From Candidatus Saccharibacteria bacterium CPR2 (GTDB lineage: Bacteria > Patescibacteriota > Saccharimonadia > Saccharimonadales > QWHN01): 64,000 nt of DNA. The position numbers were made by a program, and so were the translations under genes. Where the stretch lies: assembly GCA_021404905.1 (NCBI GenBank), contig QWHN01000001.1, positions 130,162 through 194,161 of the forward strand. The letters are read 5' to 3'. Of the stretch, positions 3,901 through 64,000 are shown piece after piece. How positions within the stretch are numbered: the stretch's first letter is position 1; every line of letters begins with the position of its first letter. A model generated the notes under the pieces. That model was not told the origin of the DNA. It made no database searches and saw only the letters and a program-made list of their open reading frames with translations.

Positions 3901-4385
3901 TGCCAGTTTTGACTGGTTACTGTGCCGTCGTTATTATTGCTTGAAGCATCATCGACAGGCGTGCCACTGGATTCATCCAGGTGATAAAGTGCCATAGTGT
4001 TGGTGTCTGATGTATAGTTTTGCGCTTTTAAGCGTGCTACTGTTCCAGATGCTTCCACCCCCGAGTCAAAACTATAATTTCCAGGAGTAGAAAAATCCCA
4101 GTTATCGTTTAAGTCTCCGGCAAACACGCCTTTCATGTTTGACAACAATACCGCGCCAATAATTAACAAATAAATTCCGAGAGTACCAAAATGAACATGT
4201 TTGTGATAATCCCAGTTGTGCCACCAGTTGTACCACTGCCATTTGTCCATAAATCGTTCATGATGCTTGCCAGCCGCATGCCAGTGTACTTTTTTTAAAT
4301 GGGGATGTACAAATACAGAAGCTGTCATTAGCCACTTTTTAATATTTGCTATGACTTGATCAAAAACTAAACCAAGTTGCCCCAT
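885..4385 (-). CDS. Giant membrane-anchored surface protein. It has a Trp/His-rich N-terminus, one TM helix, a LamG-like domain, about 14 beta-propeller-type repeats and a second LamG-like domain.
   Basis: 1166-aa ORF. TM segment FGTLGIYLLIIGAVLLSNM. About 14 repeats of 50-55 aa with the signature YAGLG..GDAEVW.W.GS.W..IGGDG.N..W. The C-terminal WHHIGATYNGSTMKIYIDG...GLLDEIRISDNVRS is typical of the concanavalin/LamG (Laminin_G_3) fold. Confidence 0.85.
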   Translation of the reverse strand: MGQLGLVFDQVIANIKKWLMTASVFVHPHLKKVHWHAAGKHHERFMDKWQWYNWWHNWDYHKHVHFGTLGIYLLIIGAVLLSNMKGVFAGDLNDNWDFSTPGNYSFDSGVEASGTVARLKAQNYTSDTNTMALYHLDESSGTPVDDASSNNNDGTVTSQNWQAGNLNNGLSLNGTTSKISVPDSASLSLSQNNTIEGWAKFDSSFSAGSHTQRQTIVDKGDYQLYFDNETGKVTYELANSSASGWTKAAGDDVNNSWNWDGMTAVASSVVMGSDVYAGLGVGTKDAEVWKFSSGSWSKVGGDGVNSSWSGEHEYVLSLETDGTNIYAGLGTGTGDAEVWKFTSGSWSKIGGDTATPAQWGIGTHEGVYSLDYFGGNLYAGLGASANDAEVWRWNGSSWTKIGGDTTAWMTNYDYVYSMANDGTNLYVGLGITAGEAEVWRWNGSTWTKVADSGSGFGANLEMVRSLYHDGTYLYAGVGDNNTSTDYDADIYRCTNCASSPSWSQIGGDGLNSGWAASTYEYVKSIASDGTNIYAGLGSGNGDGEVWSWNGSSWAKVGGDGSNSSWSTNEGDVVFTMVNDGTTVYAGTYDSAGTGQMWSWNGSAWTRLGGNGVNKSWCCYNLQSLEVMQWVGDYLYAGTGYTVAGNAMVWRFDGSNWELVGGQGVNSSWSAFTYESVSSMASLGGKLYVGLGYTPAGDGEVWEWDGSTWTQIGGTSSGNWGTSTHEMVLSMSVMDGKLYAGLGTGAGDAEVWEWSGSGTAWTQIGGLNADNWGASGFDRVQSMAVYNGKLYAGLGVTTNESEVWEWSGSGTAWTKVGGDAVSSSWNTNYETIRTMTNFGDKLVVGLGDAAGDAEVWTYDGSTWELIGGGASSVNSSWSSGTYEYIPTMTVYNGKLYAGLGYTPNGDGELWEFNGTDDWTQIGGDTLNNGWDGNVEEVKALSVYKGKLYVGNGNSGNTEDPSIWSWGNNGFVQSSTASFDTNWHHIGATYNGSTMKIYIDGSEVGSQSASLTMPDSTKALYVGASWGGREQGKARGYFQGLLDEIRISDNVRSSFQTTPYSTSAQGVTLGTAVRTQGVASWDTFGDSETTNGGTITYRLSDDGGTTWKYWNGSSWATSSSYSDSNSVSTINTNIPTFPVTFYGIKWQAVLQGNGSQRVTLRKATEERL

Positions 4386-12540: not shown

Positions 12541-12600
12541 GTTAATCTTTACTGATTCCTAGTTGCTATTTTCTAGTTGCCAATTCCCAGTTCCCGTACC
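12541..12600. repeat. Solo block of the dispersed 7-8-nt word repeat (reverse orientation)
   Basis: The reverse complement of ctgattcctagttgctattttctagttgccaattcccagttcc reads GGAACTGG GAATTGG CAACTAG AAAATAG CAACTAG GAATCAG. The same word family occurs at 59.7-60.0 kb and 63.1/63.6 kb. Confidence 0.6.
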
Positions 12601-17994: not shown

Positions 17995-18546
17995 CTATCC
18001 CTTATAGTTGTCAGGCTCTTCGTAATAATACGATTGTTCTATGCCTTTCATAAATACTTCGCGATCATCTATTTTGTCTGTTAATGCCGTACGTAGGAGC
18101 TCACGTAATTCAAGGTCGTTTACTGGGCTACGCTCCATAGCGTTAAAATAGTCATTCTTGTCAATTTTTTGCCAATCCACACATTGTTTTAGATTTTTCT
18201 TTAGAATTAAATCAAGCCAAATTCGTGTACTACGACCATTGCCCTCCATAAATGGGTGGGCAATATTCATCTCGACATACTTTTTGACGATTTCCTCAAA
18301 AGTTGTTTCAGGCATTTTCTCTATCTCAGACAAGCCTTTTCGTAAATAAATAGCAGATGCAAATGTAAAGCCACCTTTGCTAATGTTTTTTGAGCGAATT
18401 TTACCTGCGAACTTATATAATCCACCAAAAAGATATTTGTGAATTTGCTGTAAACCCTTTATTGTACCTACCTCAAAAGACGACAACTCTAGGCTACCAA
18501 AGAGTTTTATAGCTCGCTGTTTACTTATTTCGTCAATGTTTTGCAT
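17995..18546 (-). CDS. fic: Fic-family protein (AMPylase-type), probably class III with a C-terminal inhibitory helix
   Basis: Canonical Fic motif [12 protein letters not shown]. The C-terminal [10 protein letters not shown] fits the S-x-x-x-E inhibitory motif position. Confidence 0.9.
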
Positions 18547-18636
18547 GTCTATATTATAACAGAAAACGATAGAATTAACCCCTGTTAGATTGATCGATCA
18601 ATTCAGGAACCCAATCAGGTTTTTCACGACTCAATC

Positions 18637-18651
18637 TGGCTCCCGGGGCCG
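18637..18651 (-). repeat. Distal att core (displaced 3' end of tRNA-Asn)
   Basis: Exact 15-nt match to 28185-28199 in the same orientation. Identity stops on both sides. Confidence 0.8.
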
Positions 18652-18707
18652 AGACAAAGCACATCTTCAGCCGTGCTCAATGCAAGCATTGGCGCGCGGC
18701 TTTGATG

Positions 18708-18890
18708 ACCGAACCTCCGGTTCGATGTTCAGCTTCGCAGAACTTCAAAAGAAAAACCCAACCACAAGGGTCAGGCGTTTCTTTTGGCTCCCCCTACACT
18801 ACTCAATCAGCAACCTAACTTTGGAATACCAAGTGGATGGTGGCTACCTCAAAGATTTGACCAAACGGTTACGGGGCAGTACCATTTTAC
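18708..18890. repeat. Conserved non-coding left-end module, copy A (about 183 bp)
   Basis: Aligns with 19648-19830. The first 110 nt or so are near-identical (one 1-nt indel, one substitution); the rest is diverged. Contains the hairpins CGAACC-TCC-GGTTCG and CAAAAGAAA...TTTCTTTTG. Confidence 0.75.
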
Positions 18891-19147
18891 CCATATAACT
18901 GTGAATGCGTTCCTATTAGAGAAAAAATTATTACTTCACTGCCCTCTCTATAAAAAAGCGCTCGCAAATCGCCTGAAATATTTATGCTGTAATAGCCCGC
19001 GTACTTACCTCTTAACGGATGGAGTCTTAGGAGAGGATTGGTTTGATCGATCAAAAAAAGCTTTAAACGCTCATCAAATTGACTCTGAATTTTTGTCGGA
19101 AGTTTCTCGTATTGCTGTTTAAATTTTTTATCAAATCTAAGTATCAC
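18887..19147 (-). CDS. relE: Type II toxin, RelE/ParE superfamily
   Basis: 86 aa. LHPLRGKYAGYYSINISGDLRALFYREGSEVIIFSLIGTHSQLY fits the RelE/YafQ-type pattern. GTG start overlaps the antitoxin stop (GTGA). Confidence 0.85.
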   Translation of the reverse strand: MILRFDKKFKQQYEKLPTKIQSQFDERLKLFLIDQTNPLLRLHPLRGKYAGYYSINISGDLRALFYREGSEVIIFSLIGTHSQLYG

Positions 19148-19413
19148 GATTTAAGTTCTTTTAGAAAATCATCAACGTTATCGAAAGGCTTGCTTATCTC
19201 GCCATTTTCTCTGTCTCTTTCTACCTGCTCAATTAAACTTTCAAGCTTAGGTGTCATTTGTTCGGGAGCATATATCTCAATTCGTCTAGTAGCCACAATC
19301 TGCTTTAAGTAACTGTTAACTAAACTACTAAGTGTAATCCCAGCGTCACGTGCAAGCTGTTGAGCAGCTCTCTTAGTTTCGTCATCGGTCTTGATAGTAA
19401 TAACTTTACTCAT
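19144..19413 (-). CDS. relB: Type II antitoxin, RelB/DinJ family
   Basis: MSKVITIKTDDETKRAAQQLARDAGITLSSLVNSYLKQIV is a ribbon-helix-helix N-terminus. The track ORF extends to 19479, but the internal Met at 19413 gives the canonical N-terminus. Confidence 0.8.
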   Translation of the reverse strand: MSKVITIKTDDETKRAAQQLARDAGITLSSLVNSYLKQIVATRRIEIYAPEQMTPKLESLIEQVERDRENGEISKPFDNVDDFLKELKS

Positions 19414-19560
19414 AATACCGAGTATACACAAGGTATTACGTGTGTCAAGGAAAGCATGTATCTTTAATGGCTTCTTCATGACGACTGGTTCCTTGCAAGG
19501 ACGGTCCTTGCAAAACCAATTAACCAGTTTGGATTTGAATGGTAGTTATGTGATTTACGC

Positions 19561-19603
19561 CTCGCTTCATCTCTTGATAGTTATATATGGCACCGAGGCC
19601 GGA
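19561..19603 (+). pseudogene. Remnant of a recombinase 3' end plus a degenerate att-like core (right end of a decayed sibling element)
   Basis: ctcgcttcatctcttgatagttatatatggcaccgaggccgga aligns with 28158-28201, ctcgcttcgtgtcttgatagttctatatggctcccggggccgga. The encoded LASSLDSYIW compares with the recombinase C-terminus LASCLDSSIW. Weaker homology continues about 40 nt further upstream. Confidence 0.65.
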
Positions 19604-19647
19604 TATCGCGTTCACTCTATTCATACTCCTTCCTGCGCTCCTCGTCC

Positions 19648-19830
19648 ACCGAACCTCCGGTTCGATGTTCAGCTTCGCAGAACTTCAAAAGAAAAACCCA
19701 ACCACAAGGGGTCAGGCGTTTCTTTTGGCTCCCCCTACACCACTCAATCAGCAACCTATCTTTAGAGTATCAAGTTGATGGTAATTACCTCAAGGATTTG
19801 GCTAAACGACTAAGGTTACGGGGCAATTTA
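19648..19830. repeat. Conserved non-coding left-end module, copy B
   Basis: Direct repeat of 18708-18890; see that feature. Confidence 0.75.
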
Positions 19831-19860
19831 CTCGCTGGTGCAACTGTTTAGCGGACTAGT

Positions 19861-20130
19861 TTATAGCCCCTTGAACAGTTGTTCTAGCGAAATATCCAGC
19901 GATTTAGCAATCTTAAAGAGCGTTGATAGTGTTGGTTTACGGCGACCTTGCTCAATAAAGCCCATATGTGAGCGGTCAATTCCGCTGTTAGCCGCCAGTT
20001 TTTCTTGGCTCATACCATTAGAATTGCGAGCTTTTACGATACGCTTTCCTAGTTCAGTGTAGATTTGGTCAACAGATGATGCTTTCACATCTTTAGCGTA
20101 TTGATTACAATTGTAAGTAACCACTGACAA
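19861..20130 (-). CDS. XRE/Cro-CI-type HTH transcriptional regulator
   Basis: LGKRIVKARNSNGMSQEKLAANSGIDRSHMGFIEQGRRKPTLSTLFKIAKSLDISLEQLF is a canonical HTH_3 domain. The start is uncertain (TTG at 20130 or GTG at about 20088). Confidence 0.8.
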   Translation of the reverse strand: MSVVTYNCNQYAKDVKASSVDQIYTELGKRIVKARNSNGMSQEKLAANSGIDRSHMGFIEQGRRKPTLSTLFKIAKSLDISLEQLFKGL

Positions 20131-20137
20131 ATGTCAG
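20124..20137. promoter_or_regulatory. Candidate operator: perfect palindrome CTGACA-AA-TGTCAG in the XRE/ltp divergent region
   Basis: Read directly from the sequence. It sits between divergent genes and overlaps the longest XRE start; TATACAAT follows 9 nt downstream. Confidence 0.35.
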
Positions 20138-23518: not shown

Positions 23519-23701
23519 CTATTTGTGTTCCATAAATTTCACTAAATCTTCACGCTTGTATCGGCGTAAACCACGCTCGCCAATTCGCACTGCTCTCAAA
23601 ATACCTTTCTTGTCCCAGGCACGAAGTGTGTTGGGATGGACTTTTAGCAGCTCGCTGGCTTGCTTTAGGGTTAGTAATTCTTGCAATGGTTCTTGTGACA
23701 T
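23519..23701 (-). CDS. Excisionase/MerR-type HTH DNA-binding protein (candidate recombination directionality factor)
   Basis: 60 aa. LLTLKQASELLKVHPNTLRAWDKKGILRAVRIGERGLRRYKREDL is an HTH_17-type pattern. Confidence 0.75.
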   Translation of the reverse strand: MSQEPLQELLTLKQASELLKVHPNTLRAWDKKGILRAVRIGERGLRRYKREDLVKFMEHK

Positions 23702-23762
23702 ATTTACTCACTCTTGATAACATTATTATACAGCCATAAAGATGTAGTGAAAGTAGTAAAAG

Positions 23763-24788
23763 GTGTTACACGGCGAAGAAAAAATCTGGTTTCTGGTAAA
23801 TACGCTTGATAAAGAGCGTAAGGTCACGCCCAAGGGCAAGCCCGTGGCATTGCACCCAATGAATGACCTAAACAATCACTACTCCAAATTGGATTTTATT
23901 GACCTGTTTGAAACGCTTGAACAAGACAAAGTCGCCAAGTTACTTAACCAGCTACCGACTGACCAAACCTACGGCAAGTACCAAATCCAGCTATTACCAG
24001 GATTTGATGGCTATGTTGAAAAGCTAGAAGAAAACCCAGAATATCTTGAATGGTCAGGCAAAAAGCCCAAACCTAAAAACTACTTTAGCCCAGAACGGCG
24101 TGTTGACTTTTCTAAGCCCAAAGAAGAAAACAAGGATAAGTACATATCGGTTGGTCAGATTGAAGAATTGATGAAAATGCCCAAGGATGAACGGGCAAAG
24201 ATTGAAAAGAATAGCCTGACCCAAGAACACCTTAACGACATTACAGAGTTTCAAGATGGTTTGGCAAAAGCCAGCAAAGCACTTAAACAAAAGATGGATG
24301 CAGCAGTTAAAGACCTAGTACCTAAAATTAACTTCCCCGATGTTATGAAAACCGACCACATAGCCATAACTCCACCACCAAACTATCAGGCACAATCCGT
24401 CGGGCTTTTAAAGCAGCTTGTTGAGCAGCAAAAGCAGCAAGACAAGCAGGATAATAAAGCTGTGCTAAAAATAACCTACACCAGCTCACGCCAGGTTATG
24501 TTGAACGGCGTATTTCAACTTGCAAGACCATCCCTCAATGGTACAAATGACCTTGTTTTCAACCATCTGTACCAAAACCCAGGCAAGTCATTTTCCAAGC
24601 AGCAGTTAGAAGCAGCTATCGGACAAAAAATTAGCAAGACCCTACATAAGATAGTTGAAAACCTTGGCTTTAAAGGTGATTTAGCCAAAGCCTTCTTTTC
24701 GGTATCAAAAAATAACATTGTATTTAGAAACCCGATTACCCGTGATGAACTAAACGATATGGGCTTGGGCAATATAAAGTTAAGCTGA
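23763..24788 (+). CDS. Hypothetical protein (GTG start); Lys/Gln-rich centre, possible C-terminal winged helix
   Basis: 341-aa ORF divergent from the Xis-like gene; no motif recognised. Confidence 0.6.
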   Translation: MLHGEEKIWFLVNTLDKERKVTPKGKPVALHPMNDLNNHYSKLDFIDLFETLEQDKVAKLLNQLPTDQTYGKYQIQLLPGFDGYVEKLEENPEYLEWSGKKPKPKNYFSPERRVDFSKPKEENKDKYISVGQIEELMKMPKDERAKIEKNSLTQEHLNDITEFQDGLAKASKALKQKMDAAVKDLVPKINFPDVMKTDHIAITPPPNYQAQSVGLLKQLVEQQKQQDKQDNKAVLKITYTSSRQVMLNGVFQLARPSLNGTNDLVFNHLYQNPGKSFSKQQLEAAIGQKISKTLHKIVENLGFKGDLAKAFFSVSKNNIVFRNPITRDELNDMGLGNIKLS

Positions 24789-24860
24789 TAACCATTCCCA
24801 AATGTTCCCATCTTTGCCCGCTCAGGCGAGCAATTGCTTCTATTTAGTTAAGTTGGCTGT

Positions 24861-25031
24861 ATGGATAAGCAGCCACCAAGTAGCACAGCAAAAGCCAGCC
24901 AAGAAAAACCTTGGTCTGATGCTGAACTGCGGCGTGTTGCCCGTGTGTTTGACTTGCTCATAAGGATAGACCAGCGTAAACGAGGAAAAGGTAATGAAGA
25001 AAAACCAGTCAGCAAGCCCAAAACTAGTTAA
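24861..25031 (+). CDS. Possible 56-aa ORF (below the ORF-track cutoff)
   Basis: My translation is MDKQPPSSTAKASQEKPWSDAELRRVARVFDLLIRIDQRKRGKGNEEKPVSKPKTS. It overlaps the next ORF by 38 nt, so only one of the two starts may be real. Confidence 0.25.
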   Translation: MDKQPPSSTAKASQEKPWSDAELRRVARVFDLLIRIDQRKRGKGNEEKPVSKPKTS

Positions 25032-25269
25032 GAAGTGCAACGACTGTAAGTTAATTGAAGCAAAAGCTATCATCTGGAATAACGAAGCTGAAACGCTCAG
25101 CAAAATTATAGACGAAATACAAGGCTTTATGCCGACCTACGGTATTGATGTAAAACTTATCAACCGAATTAAGGAAAGCTGTGAAGAATTGCTTGAAGAA
25201 AGATTGAACTTTCTAGATGGCTACTTAGATTTTTGGCAGGAATGTACTGATGAGCATCACCGAAATTAA
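24994..25269 (+). CDS. Hypothetical small protein
   Basis: 91-aa ORF with an AGGAAAAGG SD upstream. Overlaps the next gene by 20 nt. Confidence 0.45.
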   Translation: MKKNQSASPKLVKKCNDCKLIEAKAIIWNNEAETLSKIIDEIQGFMPTYGIDVKLINRIKESCEELLEERLNFLDGYLDFWQECTDEHHRN

Positions 25270-25549
25270 CATTACGGCCGTCAAGCCAAAAGACGGGCTT
25301 GTTGGCTTTGCCAGCTTCGTGTTTGCTGGTGCGTTGTACTGCGGCTCTGTCGGCATATTTAGCCGTCCTAGCGGCGGTTATAGGCTCGTATACCCTACCA
25401 AGCTAGTTGCAGGTCGTCAGCTAGATGTGTACCACCCAATAACGGGTGCTGTCGGCAGACAGATTGAAGAAGCTGTAATAACTAAATTTGAAGAAGTAAT
25501 GAACAATGCTCGGAATAGACACAGTAGTGCTGAACTTTTATCCCAATGA
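25250..25549 (+). CDS. SpoVG-like protein
   Basis: ITEINITAVKPKDGLVGFASFVFAGALYCGSVGIFSRPSGGYRLVYPTK...YHPIT parallels the SpoVG N-terminal pattern (..KLKAFASVT.D..F.V.DI.V..G..G.FVAMPSRK...HPI). Confidence 0.65.
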   Translation: MSITEINITAVKPKDGLVGFASFVFAGALYCGSVGIFSRPSGGYRLVYPTKLVAGRQLDVYHPITGAVGRQIEEAVITKFEEVMNNARNRHSSAELLSQ

Positions 25550-26660
25550 GTTTGCCATATTGCGACCTTGGGATTTTACGCCCAACACAAACCGCATTAC
25601 GGCTATTGAGCCGAAGGATTTGGGAAAAGGACGCTATATGCAAGCAACACGCAACCCAAACAAGCAAGAAACAGCCCAGACAGGTTATCTACCGTACCTG
25701 ACCTTTTATAAAGGCATACGGGCTGGCGGCGTTACCACGGGCTTGCGAGTGCAGTTTTCTGTGCCAAAGCTGATTTACGGCAATAACTTTGATGAACTGG
25801 TTGAAGCTGACCTAGACCAAGTCTATGAGCGGCTGTTTGAAGGTTTAAAGTTCTATGGCGTACGGTTCTTCAAGGGCATAGAAACGGTCAAAAATGCCAA
25901 GGTAGCCACAATCCACTTCGCCAAGAACTTTCCGCTCAGTAACTATATGACCGCTCACGAAGCGATTACCGAAATACAGAAGTGCGATGTGACGACCTGG
26001 CGTGATGTAAGCCAAAGCGATTATGTGAACAATGGACACGGCTTTAAGACGCACTCCAAGCACTACGAGCTGGCTTTTTACGACAAGATAGCCGAGTACC
26101 ACAAAGGCAAACGCAACCAGCCTGTGTTTGATACAGACTTGCAGTTGCAGATGGATTTGTTTGGCAACAATCAAATTGTTCAGCCTTTTGAAGTGCTTCG
26201 TATGGAAGCTCGTCTAAATAACCAAAGAATTATCAAATCAACACTCAAAAAGGCTGGCTTTGAAGGTGCAGAAGTTACGCTTGCGGCACTCTGCAAAAAG
26301 GATATTTCACAAGCCGTCTTGAAGCAGCAGCTTGCCGAGCTATATTCACGCTACCCAAAAATCAGCGATGCCAAAGCACCTGATTTACACGCCCTATTTA
26401 GCCAGCTGTATGTTCAAAATCCAGGTCGCAATATGACCACACTACTTTCGGCTGTCGGGTTACGAGCCTTAAATCAAGAACACGGCACACGAAGGCTTAA
26501 AGACATAGTTGGTCCACGGGGCAGCCCAGCACTGCTCCGCCAAGCCAAAAAGATAAACCACGAATTAGCTTACAGGTTTGAGCAACCAGAGGTATTTCAA
26601 ATGCTAGATGAGCAGCTGGATAGGTTCTTGCCCGTTAAGTTAGCTAACTTCGTAAATTGA
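25506..26660 (+). CDS. Putative replication initiation protein (phage/plasmid gene II/X or CRI-like); function uncertain
   Basis: 384-aa ORF. The N-terminus MLGIDTVVLNFYP.. resembles the MIDxLxLxxP start of rolling-circle/filamentous-phage initiators. It sits in an operon with the SpoVG-like gene directly upstream of the recombinase. Confidence 0.4.
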   Translation: MLGIDTVVLNFYPNEFAILRPWDFTPNTNRITAIEPKDLGKGRYMQATRNPNKQETAQTGYLPYLTFYKGIRAGGVTTGLRVQFSVPKLIYGNNFDELVEADLDQVYERLFEGLKFYGVRFFKGIETVKNAKVATIHFAKNFPLSNYMTAHEAITEIQKCDVTTWRDVSQSDYVNNGHGFKTHSKHYELAFYDKIAEYHKGKRNQPVFDTDLQLQMDLFGNNQIVQPFEVLRMEARLNNQRIIKSTLKKAGFEGAEVTLAALCKKDISQAVLKQQLAELYSRYPKISDAKAPDLHALFSQLYVQNPGRNMTTLLSAVGLRALNQEHGTRRLKDIVGPRGSPALLRQAKKINHELAYRFEQPEVFQMLDEQLDRFLPVKLANFVN

Positions 26661-26693
26661 TGACAAATGTAAGTTATAATAGGAGTAAATACT

Positions 26694-28226
26694 ATGAAAA
26701 AAGCCGTAATACTAGCAAGAGTATCAACTAAGAAACAAGAGCAAGAAGGCTTATCGCTGGAAGAAATTCAGCTCCCAGCAATGCGTGAATACGCTGAGCT
26801 ACACGACTTTGAAATTGTAAAGGAATATGTGTTTAGCGAAAGTGCTGATATGGGCATACGCAAGAAGTTCAACGAAATGATGGACTATGTAAAAAAGCAC
26901 AAAGACATTGAAGCCATTATAGCGTTTCGTGTTGACCGAGCTACCCGCAACTTTGCCGACCACGTTGCTATGGATAACCTGCGGACCGAGTACAACAAGG
27001 AATTACATTTTGTTCACGATAGGCTAACTATAACTGCTCGCTCGGTTGGGCGTGATATTACCGACTGGGACACTAAAGTATACCTAGCCAAACAAATCAT
27101 AAATCGTCTTAAAGAAGATGCCCATAACTCACGCTACGCCAAGCTGCGTGATGGCGAGCTGCCAGGTATTGCACCGTATGGCTATAAGAACGAAGCGATT
27201 GATAAACGCAACAAAACTGTTGTGCCTGTGCCCTTCAAAGCCAATATCGCCCTCAAAACATTTGAGCTGTACGCTACTGGTACATTTTCGTACAAATCCT
27301 TAGCCAAACGAATGAAGACTGACTACGGTGTTGATATGCCTTGGAGCAGCTTCGGCACGATACTCAAAAATCGCTTCTACATTGGCGAGATTTACGATAA
27401 GGCTACGGACAACTACTATCAGCATCACTACGAACAATTCGTGCCATACGAGCTGTTTTGGCAGGTTCAGGATGTAATTGCTGGTCACGGCAAGAAAAAG
27501 ATTAAGTACAAAGGTTTGCCGTTTACTTACCGTGGCTTGCTGCACTGTAAAAAATGCGGCTGTGCCATCACGCCCGAAGCCAAGCACAAGAAACAGAAGA
27601 ACGGTAACAAGCACAGCTACGCCTATTACCACTGCACGGGCAAAAGCAAAGCCTACGGCAAACACAAGGACACTGAATGGCTTGAAGAAAAGGAACTGGA
27701 TGGCATACTCGCCCAGCTGTTTGACGACTGCAAAATACCAGAAAACGAATTACCACGCCTTGAACAAATACTAAAGGAAGCCCACGGCGGCAAGGTTGTA
27801 TTCAATAAAGAACAGGTTAAATATCACAATACCGAAATTTCAAAGCTACAAAATCGGATTGAAGTAGCCTATGAGGATAAGTGCGATGGTAGTATTACCC
27901 AAGCAGAATATGACAAGAAGCGTTCTAAATGGCGTCAGCAGCAGAAGCTACACGAACGCAAATTGGCACGGCTCTCGGAAGTTGATGAACAATACTATGT
28001 TACGGTTGCCTATCTGTTAGAAATAGCTGCCCGTGGTAGCGAGCTATTTATAGCTGCTGAACCAAACGAAAAGCGAGAGTTAATTGGTTTGCTTGGTCAG
28101 AACCTGCTTTTGGATGGTAAATCCGTGCAAATAACCCTTTACAAACCGTTTGATACTCTCGCTTCGTGTCTTGATAGTTCTATATGGCTCCCGGGGCCGG
28201 ACTCGAACCGGCAACCTCGAAGTTAA
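26694..28226 (+). CDS. Large serine recombinase (resolvase catalytic domain, recombinase domain, zinc ribbon, coiled coil)
   Basis: AVILARVSTKKQ holds the catalytic Ser. AFRVDRATRN is present. Zinc ribbon CKKCGCAITPE...YYHCTG. AGGAG SD upstream. The last 14 codons run antisense through the att core and tRNA-Asn. Confidence 0.93.
   Translation: MKKAVILARVSTKKQEQEGLSLEEIQLPAMREYAELHDFEIVKEYVFSESADMGIRKKFNEMMDYVKKHKDIEAIIAFRVDRATRNFADHVAMDNLRTEYNKELHFVHDRLTITARSVGRDITDWDTKVYLAKQIINRLKEDAHNSRYAKLRDGELPGIAPYGYKNEAIDKRNKTVVPVPFKANIALKTFELYATGTFSYKSLAKRMKTDYGVDMPWSSFGTILKNRFYIGEIYDKATDNYYQHHYEQFVPYELFWQVQDVIAGHGKKKIKYKGLPFTYRGLLHCKKCGCAITPEAKHKKQKNGNKHSYAYYHCTGKSKAYGKHKDTEWLEEKELDGILAQLFDDCKIPENELPRLEQILKEAHGGKVVFNKEQVKYHNTEISKLQNRIEVAYEDKCDGSITQAEYDKKRSKWRQQQKLHERKLARLSEVDEQYYVTVAYLLEIAARGSELFIAAEPNEKRELIGLLGQNLLLDGKSVQITLYKPFDTLASCLDSSIWLPGPDSNRQPRS
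28185..28199 (-). repeat. Proximal att core (3' end of the intact tRNA-Asn)
   Basis: Identical to 18637-18651. Confidence 0.8.
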
Positions 28227-28259
28227 CAGCTTCTTGCTCCACCATTGAGCTACCCGGGA
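28185..28259 (-). tRNA. tRNA-Asn (GUU), CCA encoded
   Basis: Manual fold of TCCCGGGTAGCTCAATGGTGGAGCAAGAAGCTGTTAACTTCGAGGTTGCCGGTTCGAGTCCGGCCCCGGGAGCCA. It has a 7-bp acceptor stem with U1-A72 and G73, D stem GCTC/GAGC, anticodon loop CU-GUU-AA and T arm GCCGG-TTCGAGT-CCGGC. There is one A27:G43 mismatch. Confidence 0.92.
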
Positions 28260-28321
28260 ATACTACTGAATCTAGGGTAAAATTATAGATACCGCAACAG
28301 ATTTGGTCAATTCGCTATTTT

Positions 28322-28609
28322 TCAGGCGATTAGTTTCAATTTCAAATGTGCTGCAATTTGTTCAATTTGTCGCTCAAGCCTATCAACCTTTTTCCCCAAT
28401 GCCAGCATCTCTTGCATGTACGTTTCCGCTTGTTTTGCATACGCATCAACCGCCCGCGCATAAACATCGATGGACTGTTTTACTTCATCACGAACATTTT
28501 GTCTATCTTTAGCAGCATCAGCAAATCCTTTGACCATCAGCTTTGCCATACGCTCTAGATGATCGTCGATGTTATTTAGTCTTTTTTCTAGTGTATTAGC
28601 AGTTGACAT
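28322..28609 (-). CDS. Hypothetical coiled-coil protein
   Basis: 95-aa ORF with heptad-like charged/hydrophobic periodicity. Confidence 0.5.
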   Translation of the reverse strand: MSTANTLEKRLNNIDDHLERMAKLMVKGFADAAKDRQNVRDEVKQSIDVYARAVDAYAKQAETYMQEMLALGKKVDRLERQIEQIAAHLKLKLIA

Positions 28610-28658
28610 ACTATTATTTTATCACCTGTTCTATTTACTCAAAGCACAAGCGTAAATA

Positions 28659-29099
28659 TTATTTATTTTTCAAGTTAGACAAGCGCGAGGCAAAAGCTAC
28701 GTATGCTCCATCCAGTTCCAATACTTTAAGAGCACCAACCAAGACGTAAAGCTTATCGATATCCTTTTGAGTCGGTTTACCTTTTTCGGCTTTTTCAAAA
28801 TCTTTATCAATTTTATTTACCAGCCATTTTTCCTGGCTTTTATTAGGCATATCTGCCCCGCCTGAGCTCATACTGGTATTCTTCACAACCTCAAGTGAAC
28901 GCGCTGAATAAGTTCTTTTTTGCAAATGGCCGCGCTTTATTAAATTATTTACGTGAGTTGCCACGGTAGAGACAGAGTTATACCCCAACCCAGATCTAAT
29001 TTCGCGAAAACTTGGGCTGTATCCATGCCCGGCAATGAAATTTTCAATAAAGCTAAGTATTTCTTTTTGTTTTTTCGTCGGACGAACTGATTGAGCCAT
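28659..29099 (-). CDS. LexA-N-terminal-domain DNA-binding protein lacking the S24 peptidase domain
   Basis: KKQKEILSFIENFIAGHGYSPSFREIRSGLGYNSVSTVATHVNNLIKRGHL is a LexA_DNA_bind wHTH. The remaining 75 aa or so are helical with no Ser/Lys dyad region. Confidence 0.75.
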   Translation of the reverse strand: MAQSVRPTKKQKEILSFIENFIAGHGYSPSFREIRSGLGYNSVSTVATHVNNLIKRGHLQKRTYSARSLEVVKNTSMSSGGADMPNKSQEKWLVNKIDKDFEKAEKGKPTQKDIDKLYVLVGALKVLELDGAYVAFASRLSNLKNK

Positions 29100-29122
29100 A
29101 TCTTAATTATATCCTGCTCAGT

Positions 29123-58253: not shown

Positions 58254-58736
58254 TTATTTATCATTTCCTTCAGGAAGCAGCTCTGGCTTTATTACAATGT
58301 GTCTTTCCCTGCCCTCACCCATGGATTCGGTTGTGACTCCACCTATATCTGATATAGTTCGGTGCACTATGCGCCTGTCGGCTGAGTTCATGGGCCTTAG
58401 TCTCATCTCTTCTTCGCTGCTCTTCACGTCTTCGGCCCATTTCTCCACTTTTCGGGCCAATCTTTCGTTGCGATGCTGTTTGTAATCGGCAACATCAATA
58501 TTAACCCGAGTTATCTTATGGTCATTGTTCTTCAGGGCCGAGCCAACTAGAAATTGGATAGATCTTAGTGTTTCACCTCTTTGGCCTATTAAGAAACCAT
58601 TCAGATGAGTAGAGGGTATGGATAATTCTATTATCTCCTCATCTTCGTCGCAGGTTGCTTTGACATCTATATTAAGACCAAAAAATGTTAGCAAATCTTC
58701 CAGATATTGCTTTGCGTAAGAAATTGGGTCTTGCAT
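58254..58736 (-). CDS. jag: Jag/KhpB-type RNA-binding protein (KH + R3H)
   Basis: FLIGQRGETLRSIQ (KH GXXG) and ADRRIVHRTISD (R3H); conserved position downstream of yidC. Confidence 0.88.
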   Translation of the reverse strand: MQDPISYAKQYLEDLLTFFGLNIDVKATCDEDEEIIELSIPSTHLNGFLIGQRGETLRSIQFLVGSALKNNDHKITRVNIDVADYKQHRNERLARKVEKWAEDVKSSEEEMRLRPMNSADRRIVHRTISDIGGVTTESMGEGRERHIVIKPELLPEGNDK

Positions 58737-58739
58737 GGT

Positions 58740-59669
58740 TCATCCTTTCTTTTTCTTAGAGGATGAGCGCTTTTTCTTTTTAGTTTTTTGATTTTTGGGT
58801 TTGGATGTATCGTCAGAGCTTTGATTCGCTTTATTGTTGTCGCTGTTAGCTTTAAGTTTTTCCATATCTTCGACATCTTTATTCAAAATAACTTTTTGCT
58901 GCCAGACGGCTACTGCAGAGCTTGCCGTCCAGTATAGGGCCAAGGAACCCGGAAATGTAGCAGCAAAGAATCCTGACAACAATGGAAAAAAGAAGCGCAT
59001 GTTTCTACCCATAGCCGCATTGATTTCTGATTGAGAGTTTTTTTTGCCCTGGGACTCTTCTTTTAATATTTGCCTAAGTGTCTTTGAGTCTTTTTGCTCC
59101 GGCATTAGCTGCTTGGACTGATAAAACTGCAGGATTACAGCGCCAATCGCAAGAACAAGTAATGGAATATATACGCTTCCGTTACTGATTGCGGTTTTTG
59201 ATAGATCGATAAAGCCAAAAAGGGTTTGCTGAAACTCAACGTTTCCGTTGATTATGTCCGGCAAAATACCTAGTTTCTTAATGAATCCGTAGGTAAAGTC
59301 CGTAAAGTGGCTTGGGTCGTTAGTGATTTTCCGCATTCCCTGAAACAGGCCGATAAGTATTGGGATTTGTACAAACAAAATCCCAATCGAGCTAAATGGA
59401 TTGATTTCTCGTTCTTTATAAAGCTCCATTAGAAGTTGAGATTCTTTTTGTTTATCACCTTTGCTCTTTTGCTTTATTTTTTGTATTTCAGGCTGAAGTT
59501 CACGCATAGCCCGACTGTGGTGAAGTTGTTTTTTAACAAGCGGCCACATTAGTACCCTTATTAATATTGTAAAGATAATAATTGCCAACCCAAAGTCATG
59601 CCCGGGAATCACGGCATAAACAAAAACGAGCAAATTAAAAATAGGTTGGACTATAAAAGTTTCCCACAT
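58740..59669 (-). CDS. yidC: Membrane protein insertase YidC (short form) with a Lys-rich C-terminal tail
   Basis: GLAIIIFTILIRVLMWPLVKKQ...ELQPEIQKIKQK...EINPFSS. C-terminal KPKNQKTKKKKRSSSKKKKG. Confidence 0.9.
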   Translation of the reverse strand: MWETFIVQPIFNLLVFVYAVIPGHDFGLAIIIFTILIRVLMWPLVKKQLHHSRAMRELQPEIQKIKQKSKGDKQKESQLLMELYKEREINPFSSIGILFVQIPILIGLFQGMRKITNDPSHFTDFTYGFIKKLGILPDIINGNVEFQQTLFGFIDLSKTAISNGSVYIPLLVLAIGAVILQFYQSKQLMPEQKDSKTLRQILKEESQGKKNSQSEINAAMGRNMRFFFPLLSGFFAATFPGSLALYWTASSAVAVWQQKVILNKDVEDMEKLKANSDNNKANQSSDDTSKPKNQKTKKKKRSSSKKKKG

Positions 59670-59690
59670 ACTGAAATATATAATAACGCA

Positions 59691-60030
59691 TAAACTGAAA
59701 ACTGAAAATTAGCAATCAGCAACTCAACTAGCAATTGGGAATTGGAAAATAGGAACTAGTTAGAAGTTATAAAGTTCCTAAAGCTATCAAGCCCATAAAG
59801 ACTTACCATTTCTCATTTGCCACTTCTCAATTATCAATTAACATTCATTGGTTCAATAAAACATTTATCATTATTATATTAAAGTATCTCATTAGTTAAA
59901 TGACTAAATAAATGGCAACTGGTAAATGATAAATAGGAACTAGGAATTGGCAATTAGGAAATAGAAAATAGTATATTTTTAAAAACTAATTACTAGTTTC
60001 TAATTGCTGTTTTCTAATTTCTATACTCTA
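59691..60030. repeat. Non-coding gap filled with blocks of the 7-8-nt word repeat in both orientations (imperfect long hairpins)
   Basis: Forward blocks lie at 59691-59768 and 59921-59975, for example AGGAACTAG GAATTGG CAATTAG GAAATAG AAAATAG. Reverse blocks lie at 59808-59840 and 59981-60026. Stops occur in all six frames. Confidence 0.75.
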
Positions 60031-60036
60031 TAAGAT

Positions 60037-60174
60037 CTAGTGTGTTAGTCGAACACGGCTTTTTAGTTTTCGCGCCTTAATAACGGCCCGGCCTGCTTTT
60101 GTAGCCATGCGCGCCCTAAAACCGTGCACCTTTTTCTTGTGTCTGACTTTTGGTTGAAACGTTCTCTTTGGCAT
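60037..60174 (-). CDS. rpmH: 50S ribosomal protein L34
   Basis: My translation is [45 protein letters not shown] (45 aa, TAG stop at 60037-60039). It is below the ORF-track cutoff and sits in the canonical position upstream of dnaA on the opposite strand. Confidence 0.93.
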
Positions 60175-60234
60175 AACTTGTGTTAGTTTACTTTAATTAT
60201 TTATAAGTGACAAACTCTAGTAAATTATATCAAC

Positions 60235-60353
60235 TTTTCCACAGTAATCAACAAGGTTTCCACATAATAACTGGGGTGGCTTGTTTCTGTGTACAAATTT
60301 ACCCTTGTTGTTTTTTGCTGATTCACAAAAACACATTTTTGGGTTGTGGAAAA
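60235..60353. promoter_or_regulatory. DnaA-box-like cluster upstream of dnaA
   Basis: Compared with TTATCCACA: TTTTCCACA at 60235-60243 (1 mismatch), GTTTCCACA at 60256-60264 (2), TGATTCACA at 60319-60327 (2) and TGTGGAAAA at 60345-60353 (reverse box, 1). Confidence 0.5.
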
Positions 60354-60407
60354 ATTAGAAGTTTGTGTATATTCTATTAGTATAAGTTTATTTTTGGATG
60401 GAGGGAG

Positions 60408-61778
60408 ATGGATAACGCCGTTTGGCATACTGTTTTGGGTGAAATTGAGTTGACTGTGTCCAGAGCGACTTTTGCGACTTGGTTTAAAAATACGCACTTT
60501 TTAGGATACGATGGCGGTAATGTTCGTGTTGGTGTGCCTAATGTTTTTGCTAAACACCAGCTGGAAGTAAAGTTTAATCAGCAAATAGTCGGAATCTTAA
60601 AAAAGAATGGGGTTAAATTTGAGTCAGTCGAGTATATAATTCATTCTTTACCTTCAAAGAAATCAACCGGTTCAAGTTATTTAAAAAGTAATTCAACTTT
60701 AGCTTCCACATTATCTTCAAGTAATAAATATTCCCTCGCTTCAAGCAAGCTAACAAAAAAAACTCCTCACACGCTTAATAGAAGATATACTTTTGATGAG
60801 TTTATTGTTGGGTCCGGCAATGATTTGGCTTATACGGCCTGCCAAGCAATTGTTAAATATCCGGGTACAAAATATAATCCCCTTTTTGTTTATGGTGGAG
60901 TCGGCCTTGGAAAGACACATTTAATCCAGGCCGTGGGTAATGCGGTCTTGGACAAAAACCCTGACGCGAAAGTCTATTACATTAGTACGGAGACATTCGT
61001 TAATGAGTTTTTGGAAAGTATTAGATTTAAGAAAAAATCATTTTCTGGAAAATACCGAGATGCTGACGTTTTGATAGTTGACGACATGCAGTTTATTACA
61101 GGAAAAGAAAAAACCCAGGAAGAATTTTTCCATACTTTTAACGCCCTGCATCAAGCAAACAAGCAAATCATTATTTCCAGCGATAAACCGCCAAAGGCAA
61201 TCCCTACTTTAACAGAAAGGTTACGATCCAGGTTTGAGTGGGGAATGACTGTTGATATACAACCGCCGGATTTTGAAACTAGAGTAGCTATTTTACAAAC
61301 TAAGGCAAATGTAAGTGGCGTTACTTTACCGCCGGACTGTGTAGAGTATTTAGCGACTCATATCCAAACAAATATCAGGGAGCTAGAGGGCGGGTTAAAC
61401 CAACTACTAGCATATTGTGAGATGCGCGGTATAGAGCCAGATCTTCAGATCGCCATGGGGTTAATTGAAAACACCAGGTCACGACCTCGACACATTACTC
61501 CGAAACAAGTTATAGAGAGAACCGCTAGACATTTTCAGCTTGATCTTGATGATATTTTGGGGCCAAAGAGAGATAAAGATATTGTTCTGCCGCGTCAAAT
61601 CGCAATGTATCTGCTTCGAAGCGAATTACACCTCAGTTTTCCTAAGGTGGCTAAAGAACTGGGGAGAAAAGACCACACAACCGCTATACATTCGGTTGAC
61701 AAAATAGAAAAAAATATAAGACTAGATCAAATAATTAGACAGCATGTAAATGAGATTAGGGATAGAATTTATGCTTAA
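60408..61778 (+). CDS. dnaA: Chromosomal replication initiator DnaA
   Basis: YTFDEFIVGSGNDLAY, Walker A GGVGLGKTHL, the box VII region, and C-terminal DNA-binding domain DHTTAIHSVDKI. Confidence 0.96.
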   Translation: MDNAVWHTVLGEIELTVSRATFATWFKNTHFLGYDGGNVRVGVPNVFAKHQLEVKFNQQIVGILKKNGVKFESVEYIIHSLPSKKSTGSSYLKSNSTLASTLSSSNKYSLASSKLTKKTPHTLNRRYTFDEFIVGSGNDLAYTACQAIVKYPGTKYNPLFVYGGVGLGKTHLIQAVGNAVLDKNPDAKVYYISTETFVNEFLESIRFKKKSFSGKYRDADVLIVDDMQFITGKEKTQEEFFHTFNALHQANKQIIISSDKPPKAIPTLTERLRSRFEWGMTVDIQPPDFETRVAILQTKANVSGVTLPPDCVEYLATHIQTNIRELEGGLNQLLAYCEMRGIEPDLQIAMGLIENTRSRPRHITPKQVIERTARHFQLDLDDILGPKRDKDIVLPRQIAMYLLRSELHLSFPKVAKELGRKDHTTAIHSVDKIEKNIRLDQIIRQHVNEIRDRIYA

Positions 61779-62033
61779 TAGTTGTGTGAAACTTGTTGAG
61801 AGTTTGTGTATAAGTTTTAAGGATTTTAAAAAGTTTGGAATTTTAAAATTTATATGTGGAATAAACATGGTTTATTCACAAACTTATTCAGGACTTTTAA
61901 ATAGTTTTTTCTCAGCTTTTTCACAAAAGAATAAAGATTTTTCAGATGTAATTTTTAGTAATCCACAAAATTTACAAAAACTACTATTACTACTACGAAG
62001 TTTTAATTTAATTAATATTTATGGAGAAAATTT
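61779..62033. promoter_or_regulatory. Candidate oriC (dnaA-dnaN intergenic): DnaA boxes plus an AT-rich unwinding stretch
   Basis: TGTGTATAA at 61805-61813 (1 mismatch to TGTGGATAA), TGTGGAATA at 61855-61863 (2), TTATTCACA at 61872-61880 (1) and TAATCCACA at 61959-61967 (1). An AT-only run lies at about 62001-62020. Confidence 0.55.
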
Positions 62034-63137
62034 ATGAAACTTTCCACCACGCAAGAAAACCTTTCAAAAGCACTTAATATTGTCTGTAGAGTCGCTGGCA
62101 GCAAAACTACTTTACCGATATTAGCGAATATAATGCTTAAAACCGTAAAAAACAGGCTTCAAATATCAGCAACTAACTTAGAAGTTGCTATCACTCAATT
62201 TATTGGCGGAAAGATTGACAGTAATGGTTCTATAACCGTACCAGCAAGGTTGATGAGTGACTTTGTGTCTAGTCTTCCTAAAGATACAATCAATATGGAG
62301 CTTGAAAAAAACAAACTACATATAAAAACCAAACAATACCAATCAACCATTAATGGAATAGCGGCTGATGATTTCCCTTCTATTCCAAAACTCCAAAATA
62401 AAAATACTATAAAAATTCCAATTTCAGATTTAAAAAAGGCTCTGCAACAGGTTATATTTACAGCTTCAAATGACGATTCCAGACCGGTACTAACGGGAGT
62501 GTATTTCTCCTCACAAAATGGAAGGCTGTTTATTACAGCAACAGACAGCTATAGGTTAGCGGAAAAACAAATAATAAAAATCCAAGAAAACTTATCTTGC
62601 ATCGTGCCTGTGAGTTCACTTCAACACCTACTTCGAATTTTAAGTGAAGACATAGAGGAAAATGAAGTAAATATTTCTTACGACCAAGCACAAATCCTGT
62701 TTACCTTGCAAGACATAGAGCTTGTTTCAAGATTAATAGACGGGCAATATCCAGATTATCAGAGGCTTATACCATCTAAAAGTGACGTCAACATTACATT
62801 AAACAGAGAGGATTTTATAAACATTACCAAAGTCGCGAGTTTATTTGCAAAAGAGAGCGCAGGCAGTATAACGATATCTGTTTCGGAAGAAGACCAAGAA
62901 GTCTCTATAACATCAGTGGCTTCACAAGTCGGTGAAAATATATCCAGAGCAGAAGCAAAAATTAAAGGTAGCGGTGAGGTTACACTAAACTCGAGGTATT
63001 TACTGGAGGCTTTGAACGCCATTAATGACGATAAAGTAACATTTAGGTTTAGCGGAAAGATTAGCCCGTGCGTGCTAACCCCAGCTGATTCAAAAAACTC
63101 AGACTATCTTCACATTATAATGCCTCTGAAAAGCTAG
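62034..63137 (+). CDS. dnaN: DNA polymerase III beta sliding clamp
   Basis: 367 aa. MKLSTTQENLSKALNIV...LPILANIMLK...DSYRLAE...LIDGQYPDYQRLIP. Confidence 0.95.
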   Translation: MKLSTTQENLSKALNIVCRVAGSKTTLPILANIMLKTVKNRLQISATNLEVAITQFIGGKIDSNGSITVPARLMSDFVSSLPKDTINMELEKNKLHIKTKQYQSTINGIAADDFPSIPKLQNKNTIKIPISDLKKALQQVIFTASNDDSRPVLTGVYFSSQNGRLFITATDSYRLAEKQIIKIQENLSCIVPVSSLQHLLRILSEDIEENEVNISYDQAQILFTLQDIELVSRLIDGQYPDYQRLIPSKSDVNITLNREDFINITKVASLFAKESAGSITISVSEEDQEVSITSVASQVGENISRAEAKIKGSGEVTLNSRYLLEALNAINDDKVTFRFSGKISPCVLTPADSKNSDYLHIIMPLKS

Positions 63138-63140
63138 GCC

Positions 63141-63180
63141 ACCAGGAGTTAGGAATTAGCAATTAGAAAACAGGAAATAA
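63141..63180. repeat. Word-repeat block (forward) flanking the four-helix-bundle gene on the left
   Basis: ACCAGGAGTTAGGAATTAGCAATTAGAAAACAGGAAATAA. Confidence 0.65.
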
Positions 63181-63184
63181 TAAA

Positions 63185-63571
63185 ATTTTAAATAATAAAA
63201 TAACATCTTTTAAAGATCTCGAGACATGGAAGCAGGCGCATAATCTTGTTAAATTAATATATGAGATCACAGATAATTTTAATAGGGCTGATATGTTTGG
63301 AATTACATCTCAAATGCAAAGATCTTCTCTCTCAGTATCTTCAAATATAGCCGAGGGGTTTGGCCGCCAATCCAAAAAAGACACTCTACACTTTTATATA
63401 ATGGCAAGAGGGTCATTAACAGAGCTACAAAATCAGCTGATTGTTTGTAGAGACACAAATAAAATTTCTACCGAACAATATGTCGAACTGGAGAAACAAT
63501 CTGTTCTTACTCATAAACTATTACATGGATTAATAAGATCAACAGACAGGAACAATACTAGTGATAACTAA
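63185..63571 (+). CDS. Four-helix-bundle protein (23S rRNA intervening-sequence protein family); no ATG at the family-typical N-terminus
   Basis: The track ORF (63293..63571) starts mid-domain. The frame is open from 63167 and encodes ..ITSFKDLETWKQAHNLVKLIYEITDNFNRADMFGITSQMQRSSLSVSSNIAEGFGR.., the full family pattern. The only plausible start is ATT 63185 (AGGA SD 8 nt upstream) or ATA 63200. Confidence 0.6.
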   Translation: MLNNKITSFKDLETWKQAHNLVKLIYEITDNFNRADMFGITSQMQRSSLSVSSNIAEGFGRQSKKDTLHFYIMARGSLTELQNQLIVCRDTNKISTEQYVELEKQSVLTHKLLHGLIRSTDRNNTSDN

Positions 63572-63604
63572 TTTCTTTTTCCTAGTTCCTGTTTCCTAGT
63601 AGGA
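63572..63604. repeat. Word-repeat block (reverse) flanking the four-helix-bundle gene on the right
   Basis: The reverse complement of TTTCTTTTTCCTAGTTCCTGTTTCCTAGTAGGA reads ..CTAGGAAACAGGAACTAGGAAAAAGAAA. It forms an imperfect inverted repeat with 63141-63180, with about two-thirds of positions matching by eye. Confidence 0.6.
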
Positions 63605-63607
63605 ATA

Positions 63608-64000
63608 ATGTATTCATCTCTTCGTCTTCAAAACTTTAGGTCATATAAAGACTACTCTTTAGAGTTGGGGCCTGGTGTAAATATAATTGTTGGGCCAAAT
63701 GCCAGTGGAAAAACCAATCTGCTAGAGGCGCTTTACGTTATTTCAACCGGAAGATCCTTTCGTGTAAAAGATGAGGATCTAATAAATTTCAATTCTGATT
63801 GGTCTAGGCTTGACAGTCGTTACGGAAGCACAGAGAGGGTCATTAAAATTGCAAGAAACAACGGTCGCCTTAACAAAACACTTACGATAGATGATTTACC
63901 AAACAATAAGATAAAACCAACCAATCTTATACCAATAACTCTGTTTGAGCCTCAAGATCTAAGGTTGTTTGGCGATCCCCCCGAAGCTCGTCGGAATTAC
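63608..64000 (+). CDS. recF: DNA replication and repair protein RecF (partial; continues past the window)
   Basis: My translation is MYSSLRLQNFRSYKDYSLELGPGVNIIVGPNASGKTNLLEALYVISTGRSFR..., a RecF N-terminus with Walker A. It is in frame to position 64000. Confidence 0.9.
   Translation, partial: MYSSLRLQNFRSYKDYSLELGPGVNIIVGPNASGKTNLLEALYVISTGRSFRVKDEDLINFNSDWSRLDSRYGSTERVIKIARNNGRLNKTLTIDDLPNNKIKPTNLIPITLFEPQDLRLFGDPPEARRNY

Follow-up and report, generated by a model that had tools for sequence, protein, structure and literature searches.

RnpA is among the few gene products that are essential in almost all bacteria, and the position of rnpA after rpmH is among the most conserved of bacterial gene orders. 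To our knowledge, Aquifex species are the only well-studied bacteria in which rpmH is directly followed by the yidC end of the cluster. Their arrangement is rpmH-yidD-yidC; both RNase P genes, rnpA and rnpB, are absent, the protein-only enzyme HARP is used, and the arrangement itself preceded the discovery that both genes had been lost (PMC10941002). The episymbiont Nanoarchaeum equitans, as cited in the same article, has no RNase P, and its tRNA transcripts lack leaders. The locus analyzed here lies in a window of 64,000 nucleotides, by which we mean the whole stretch of DNA that was examined. It has the same gene order as the canonical rpmH-rnpA-(yidD)-yidC-jag cluster of E. coli, B. subtilis and nearly all Saccharibacteria seen, with a divergent dnaA and DnaA-box-like motifs, but differs from it in that 367 nt of hairpin-forming non-coding DNA are found where the canonical cluster has rnpA.

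Judged by its YidC homologues, the source organism belongs to the Saccharibacteria (TM7), order Saccharimonadales, and the window locus is the replication-origin region of this Saccharibacteria (TM7) genome. The minus strand carries, in order, rpmH, the 367-nt gap, yidC and jag, and dnaA diverges from them on the plus strand; rpmH, yidC and jag thus keep the usual order on one strand beside dnaA, and rnpA is lacking between rpmH and yidC. The rpmH gene (60037–60174, minus strand; ORF call and tblastn) is intact and encodes ribosomal protein L34 of 45 aa, with 50–82% identity to the rpmH of 70 related loci (tblastn). Also intact is yidC (58740–59669, minus strand), identified through its homologues and PF02096 as encoding a short-form membrane insertase of 309 aa; YidC has 5449 homologues at E ≤ 1e-20, PF02096 occurs in 120 of the 120 matches listed, and the start codon and N-terminus are conserved. 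The gene usually found 3′ of yidC, jag/khpB (KH and R3H), occupies 58254–58736 on the minus strand according to tblastn, and Pfam assigns PF13083 and PF01424 to its orthologues in L001 and L003.

The divergent dnaA gene (60408–61778, plus strand; ORF and motif scan) has DnaA-box-like motifs on either side. Ten matches to TTWTNCACA occur in the window, five of which fall within the two intergenic regions bordering dnaA (60235–60243, 60345–60353, 61805–61813, 61872–61880 and 61917–61925), an arrangement that resembles a bipartite oriC. The AT-rich gap was considered as part of oriC and rejected in this role, as it contains no DnaA-box-like motif and the clusters flank dnaA. A 95-aa ORF between dnaA and dnaN (61750–62037) is annotated as a gene in relatives but overlaps the second DnaA-box cluster and has no Pfam match, and is possibly spurious. 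It was rejected as a replacement for RnpA because of this overlap, the lack of a Pfam match and its presence in relatives that carry rnpA.

To place the gap among related genomes, 80 Saccharibacteria yidC loci from GTDB with 45–56% YidC identity were compared, and all GTDB counts given here refer to the matches listed. Of the loci listed, 67 have rpmH and yidC on one strand, and in all 67 the two genes enclose an ORF that bears the RnpA signature (..RFHG..AVVVSKKV.KSAV.RNRIRRR..). Where rpmH is inverted, in three GTDB loci, rnpA is still beside rpmH, and all 70 listed loci with rpmH and yidC retain a neighbouring rnpA. The distance from rpmH to yidC in the 67 relatives is mostly ~400–530 nt and rnpA is ~345–400 nt long; the intervening stretches hold the rnpA ORF alone, with no space for a separate yidD. 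The next-closest relatives of the window species (63% and 59% YidC identity) likewise have a PF00825 gene directly 5′ of yidC. The sister species (L001, Logan ERR4450749; 86% YidC identity) has rpmH, a 197-nt gap and yidC, with no rnpA, on an uninterrupted 49-kb contig, and no intermediate relative (65–85% YidC identity) was found among the 5.8 billion proteins searched. Among the Saccharibacteria loci examined, the rnpA hole is common only to the window species and this sister.

Since distant relatives keep rnpA and only the 86% sister shares the hole, the absence is, on this comparison of sequences, derived and limited to a two-species clade. The initial annotation of this DNA had noted the lack of rnpA at its canonical position, which is confirmed, and had called the rpmH-rnpA-yidC order near-universal, in agreement with the 67 of 67 same-strand Saccharibacteria loci listed, in which rnpA is present in that order. 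It had also allowed beforehand for a synteny comparison in which the gap turns out to be the ancestral state; for the phylum this is not the case, as the more distant relatives keep rnpA. The locus is a variant of a very conserved gene cluster, with a derived, lineage-specific deletion.

The non-coding gap at the slot of rnpA in other Saccharibacteria (59670–60036, minus strand, 367 nt) was characterized by ORF, profile and Rfam scans. Its G+C content is 0.26, vs ~0.36–0.44 across most of the window. A 1166-aa ORF at 885–4385, made of many repeats of the GxGDAEVWxWxGSxWxxIGG type, has a G+C content of 0.47–0.49, clearly higher than the ~0.36–0.44 found elsewhere. Stop codons number 9–19 per frame in the six frames of the gap, and no ORF of at least 25 aa with a start codon lies wholly within it. 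RnpA would be expected as an ORF of ~110–130 aa with the basic RNR motif (..VVVSKKV.KSAV.RNRIRRR..), and none is present in the gap. A profile was built from the 67 Saccharibacteria RnpA sequences and run with all filters off (--max) on stop-to-stop stretches of at least 12 codons in the six frames of the window and of L001–L006; at this maximum sensitivity no RnpA remnant was matched in any of the six frames of the gap, even at E = 100. The Rfam search for a known RNA in the gap (E ≤ 10) returned noise only, with an irrelevant miRNA model as the best match (E = 0.49).

These scans bear on the possibility of an rnpA that decayed where it stood, in which case the gap would be an unrecognizable pseudogene. 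The 367 nt of the gap are indeed near the length of rnpA in relatives, but no frame yields a profile match, the greater part of the gap is taken up by self-complementary word repeats, and the sister's 197-nt gap aligns with that of the window only over the last ~60 nt and one 30-nt block; we attach practically no probability to decay in place. The gap filler is fast-evolving AT-rich hairpin sequence and not a decayed gene.

Two long imperfect stem-loops make up much of this sequence. Hairpin 1 (59928–60028, minus strand), located by an inverted-repeat search, begins 9 nt 3′ of the rpmH stop codon and has a minimum free energy of −19.5 kcal/mol (z −3.7 vs shuffles). Its arms (59985–60024 and 59933–59972) are 40 nt each and 75% complementary, and are composed of purine-rich words (TAGAAA, TTAGAAA, CAGCAA) and their complements. 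Hairpin 2 (59804–59931, minus strand; −33.2 kcal/mol, z −3.4) has no counterpart in the alignment with the sister L001, and the whole gap compared with shuffles gives a z of −2.9. In L001, one non-homologous hairpin of similar style stands at the same site after rpmH (z −4.5), i.e., a hairpin right after rpmH is conserved in position, not in sequence, across the two species, and structured spacers 3′ of rpmH were found in 10 of the 37 assessable relatives. Hairpin 1 is probably a 3′-end or terminator structure of the rpmH transcript. A scan of the minus strand over 59500–60500 found no intrinsic terminator with a G+C-rich stem of at least 5 bp and a U-tract, and the gap hairpins are long, A+U-rich and imperfect, unlike the canonical terminator with a GC stem and a U-tract.

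No second full copy of the hairpin repeat occurs in the 64-kb window, and the core of hairpin 1, searched in JGI metagenomes as a test for a dispersed repeat, gave no matches. Single arms in the purine-rich word style, without a complementary partner, are present at 12548–12595 and 63143–63175 (GGAATTGGCAACTAGAAAATAGCAACTAGGAA; AGGAATTAGCAATTAGAAAACAGGAAAT), both intergenic, the latter just 5′ of a gene for a four-helix bundle of the 23S-rRNA-IVS type (63293–63571) whose frame is open from 63167. A 27-nt inverted repeat lies at 19832–19890, within a small addiction-module-like cluster (17995–20133) that comprises Fic/DOC (17995–18546), a RelB-like antitoxin (19144–19479) and an HTH_3 regulator (19861–20133). 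In another lineage, a different word-repeat region (CATTGATCATTGAACATAGATCATTGATTTAACATTGACCATT...; L070:30–190) is placed between an intact rnpA and yidC; it folds no better than shuffles (z −0.45). Intergenic sequence in the word style is therefore not confined to the clade without rnpA.

The description of the gap in the initial annotation is accurate in several respects: the coordinates and the 367-nt spacing between rpmH and yidC agree exactly with the ORF calls, there are stops in all six frames, 9–19 in each, and the gap consists largely of word-repeat hairpins, in the form of the two long imperfect stem-loops that fold better than shuffles. Its emphasis on an rnpA-sized hole, however, rests on a coincidence of length, because the gap of the sister species is only 197 nt, and the gap contains no rnpA-like sequence. 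Nor do the data agree with its suggestion that insertion of a repeat cassette destroyed rnpA, as no remnant is detected by the profile (best E = 3.9), the sister gap is about half the length, and similar word-hairpins stand beside an intact rnpA in L070.

The long hairpins also mark the places where short-read assemblies break. Independent short-read (Logan) contigs from other samples match 59670–59979 exactly, with one mismatch in a second strain, and independent contigs match 60003–64000 exactly. None of the Logan contigs retrieved spans 59980–60002, the central 23 nt of hairpin 1: contigs that reach hairpin 1 end at 59979 on the yidC side and start at 60003 on the dnaA side, in at least 7 samples and two strains (L003, L005, L006, L094–L096; L090, L092, L093). 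A further contig, L004, breaks off sooner, at 59806, where hairpin 2 has its base. The recurring break points to a 23-nt centre that is either repeated elsewhere in the genome or polymorphic in the population, and a look-up of the rpmH protein for contigs that cross the hairpin gave no record.

In another reading, rnpA is present and the assembler skipped it at a repeat in hairpin 1, and the fact that no retrieved short-read contig crosses 59980–60002 is compatible with an artefact of this kind. The contigs on the yidC side, however, hold 310 nt of hairpin sequence and no rnpA, and those on the dnaA side end 34 nt 3′ of rpmH; the complementary arms of hairpin 1 are divided between the two contig sets, as expected of adjacent sequences, and the sister has the same rnpA-less order on one unbroken contig. 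An artefact is accordingly most improbable, and a mis-join that hides rnpA very unlikely.

Outside the hairpins, the flanks of the gap carry putative promoter elements. Upstream of rpmH, a consensus scan located a putative promoter at 60224–60251 (minus strand) with TTGATT, a 16-nt spacer and a TG-extended TATAAT (10/12 matches plus TG). Its sequence is conserved in the sister locus L001, and we infer that it serves rpmH. Within the gap, alignment with the sister species, read by eye, reveals a conserved block A at 59761–59790 on the minus strand (TTGATAGCTTTAGGAACTTTATAACTTCTA), and alignment and promoter scan define a block B at 59670–59718 (minus strand) that is ~90% identical to the sister. 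Block B contains TTTTCA, a 17-nt spacer and TATTAT, the −10 element ending 10 nt 5′ of the yidC ATG, and looks like yidC's own promoter. No Shine-Dalgarno sequence precedes yidC in block B, and with the −10 element 10 nt from the ATG, the predicted yidC mRNA is thus nearly leaderless.

The same feature recurs in relatives. The 63% relative (L089) has TG-a-TATTAT at the same 10-nt distance from the yidC ATG, and TGnTAnnnT is found 17–45 nt 5′ of yidC in about three quarters of the related loci (L007–L086), despite an rnpA immediately upstream, the commonest variant of the extended −10 element being TGnTATAGT. This distribution suggests a promoter dedicated to yidC across the phylum, in which case the removal of rnpA would be harmless to yidC.

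Indirect evidence on whether RNase P is still needed in this organism comes from the only tRNA gene in the window, a tRNA-Asn (28185–28259, minus strand; ARAGORN and Rfam). A consensus scan places its promoter, TTGACC-17-TATAAT with 11/12 matches, at 28282–28310. With 22 nt from the end of the −10 element to the mature 5′ end, the transcript is predicted to carry a 5′ leader of ~15 nt. Given this predicted leader, RNase P activity appears to be still needed, as far as one tRNA gene and a predicted promoter can tell. The leader is at odds with the reading in which RNase P is lacking altogether, with RnpA and RNase P RNA both dispensable and tRNAs leaderless as in Nanoarchaeum equitans. The similar lifestyle of a tiny episymbiont, with the precedent as cited in PMC10941002, and the missing rnpA at the locus would fit such a state, but the promoter of the window's tRNA gene is near consensus and predicts the ~15-nt leader, and we regard an RNase P-free organism as very improbable. 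Around the tRNA gene, a block at ~23700–29100 has a strongly positive AT skew (0.17–0.19 at 24–28 kb) and ORFs without family matches, and ends at the tRNA-Asn. It includes a SpoVG-like gene (25250–25549) and a LexA-type repressor gene (28659–29099), and an ORF at 26694–28226 overlaps the tRNA-Asn with its 3′ end; the block looks like a mobile element integrated at a tRNA gene.

The accessible DNA was also searched for RNase P components beyond the gap. In addition to the run with all filters off, the RnpA profile was applied with default filters (E ≤ 1e-3) to stretches of at least 30 codons, including those of L090–L093, which extend 7.8 kb past the right end of the window, so that ~72 kb were inspected in total. 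No rnpA was found in these ~72 kb of the genome (the window and 7.8 kb) or in 13 kb of the sister, the best profile match having an E of 3.9, i.e., noise, compared with 1e-39 to 1e-50 for the same profile on the relatives. A protein-only RNase P would be recognizable as a PIN-like metallonuclease of ~190 aa (HARP) or as a protein that combines PPR and NYN (PRORP). Pfam detected no Ribonuclease_P (PF00825), PIN, NYN, PRORP or HARP-like domain in 30 small or unannotated window ORFs (90–340 aa), and RNase P RNA (Rfam RF00010/RF00011) gave no match at the gathering score in the 64-kb window, L001, L090 and L003. The species' own rnpA was also sought among the 5.8 billion proteins with RnpA of the closest rnpA-bearing relative as the query; matches were ranked by AT-rich amino-acid composition, and three Logan-only candidates present on several contigs were looked up. 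These candidates (P0195, P0177 and P0143) were rejected as the rnpA of the window species, since they come from other organisms in other samples; two stand in canonical context and one after an unrelated gene.

One reading of these results is a true loss of RnpA, with pre-tRNA processed by a protein-only enzyme (HARP, PRORP-like or new), by RNase P RNA alone or with another protein partner. Loss would require a single deletion, the simplest event; rpmH and yidC are still adjacent and exactly rnpA is gone, which is the pattern of A. aeolicus and A. pyrophilus (PMC10941002), and neither rnpA in the 72 kb and 13 kb of the sister nor RNase P RNA in the same DNA was detected. On the other hand, nearly all bacteria other than the Aquificaceae possess rnpA, an essential gene (PMC10941002), the other Saccharibacteria loci examined have it, and none of the 30 small window ORFs has a PIN, HARP or PRORP domain. 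The absence of RNase P RNA says little, as less than a tenth of the genome is covered. Moreover, the cluster is broken in ~15% of the related rnpA loci, which makes relocation common enough as an alternative, and we consider true loss unlikely.

Breakage of this kind is seen in 80 metagenome loci centred on rnpA, of which 64 are canonical, ~12 lack rpmH and/or yidC beside rnpA, and one (L137) has neither. Relocation is further supported by a GTDB locus with lepB, not rnpA, before yidC (L065:1–428). Other departures from the canonical cluster were observed as well: no rnpA within 200 nt of yidC (L017:1–203), an inverted rpmH, with rnpA where visible (L040 and L058, visible in L040), rnpA-yidC without rpmH (L097, L146), and rnpA alone (L137), with L097–L099 among the Saccharibacteria-like loci in which the cluster is rearranged. 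There are also a restriction-enzyme-like gene between rnpA and yidC (L158), a 306-codon ORF that starts with an RnpA domain (L112), and inserts of ~730 nt between rpmH and rnpA (L055, L071). Two points argue against relocation, namely that a clean single-gene deletion is simpler than a move, which amounts to duplication plus deletion, and that no relocated rnpA was found in the ~72 kb. As pre-tRNAs still seem to require RNase P, its protein is nevertheless most likely encoded elsewhere, and we consider a relocated or second rnpA copy elsewhere in the genome probable.

The explanation we favour overall, and hold to be moderately probable, joins a clean deletion of rnpA, hairpins in its place and an rnpA elsewhere. 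In the ancestor of the window species and its sister, rnpA alone would have been deleted, leaving the dnaA / rpmH-rnpA-yidC-jag cluster otherwise intact. The space would then have been taken by fast-evolving AT-rich sequence with one hairpin in the sister and two in the window genome, which probably form the 3′-end or terminator structure of a now monocistronic rpmH transcript. The two short conserved blocks would follow the hairpins, the last being the putative yidC promoter that was already there in most relatives, and the RNase P protein would be encoded by a moved or second copy outside the ~72 kb inspected. A promoter of yidC's own in the phylum would explain how the middle gene could be lost without harm to its neighbours.

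The hairpins of the gap may be compared with REP/MITE-like elements or with long AU-rich 3′ stem-loops. Like these, they are imperfect inverted repeats of 40–60 nt, lie in an intergenic region immediately 3′ of a highly expressed gene and interrupt short-read assembly graphs. They differ from REP/MITE-like elements in that the 64-kb window holds no second full copy, no target-site duplications and no terminal repeats, and in that not even the sister species shares the hairpin sequence.

At the level of the gene cluster, the other broken Saccharibacteria clusters (L065, L040, L058, L097, L146, L137) are similar in reflecting repeated rearrangement in the phylum. In those clusters, however, rnpA is visible in its new neighbourhood, whereas in the window clade rnpA is the only member missing and the rest stay together. 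Compared with Nanoarchaeum equitans, the window organism is likewise a reduced-genome episymbiont without an RNase P component at the expected place, but differs in that the promoter of its tRNA-Asn predicts a leader of ~15 nt.

The closest likeness in gene order is to Aquifex, where rpmH is likewise followed by the yidC side and precisely rnpA is gone. For Aquifex, the lack of both RNase P genes is established from the whole genome and HARP was identified biochemically, whereas the window species is known from ~72 kb only; Aquifex is a hyperthermophile, whereas the window organism is a low-G+C Saccharibacterium with no HARP-like gene among the ORFs scanned. There is a small chance that the two-species Saccharibacteria clade has truly lost RnpA, as known only for Aquificaceae. 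If so, the 5′ ends of its tRNAs would be matured by RNase P RNA alone, by RNase P RNA with another protein partner or by an RNA-free enzyme, a situation that would be without precedent among non-thermophiles and within the Candidate Phyla Radiation. In Aquifex, the oddity of rpmH next to yidC led to the discovery of an RNA-free RNase P; the same signature is now found, as a derived state, in a Saccharibacteria clade, where it would stand either for a routine relocation or for a second occasion on which bacteria independently lost the RNase P protein.
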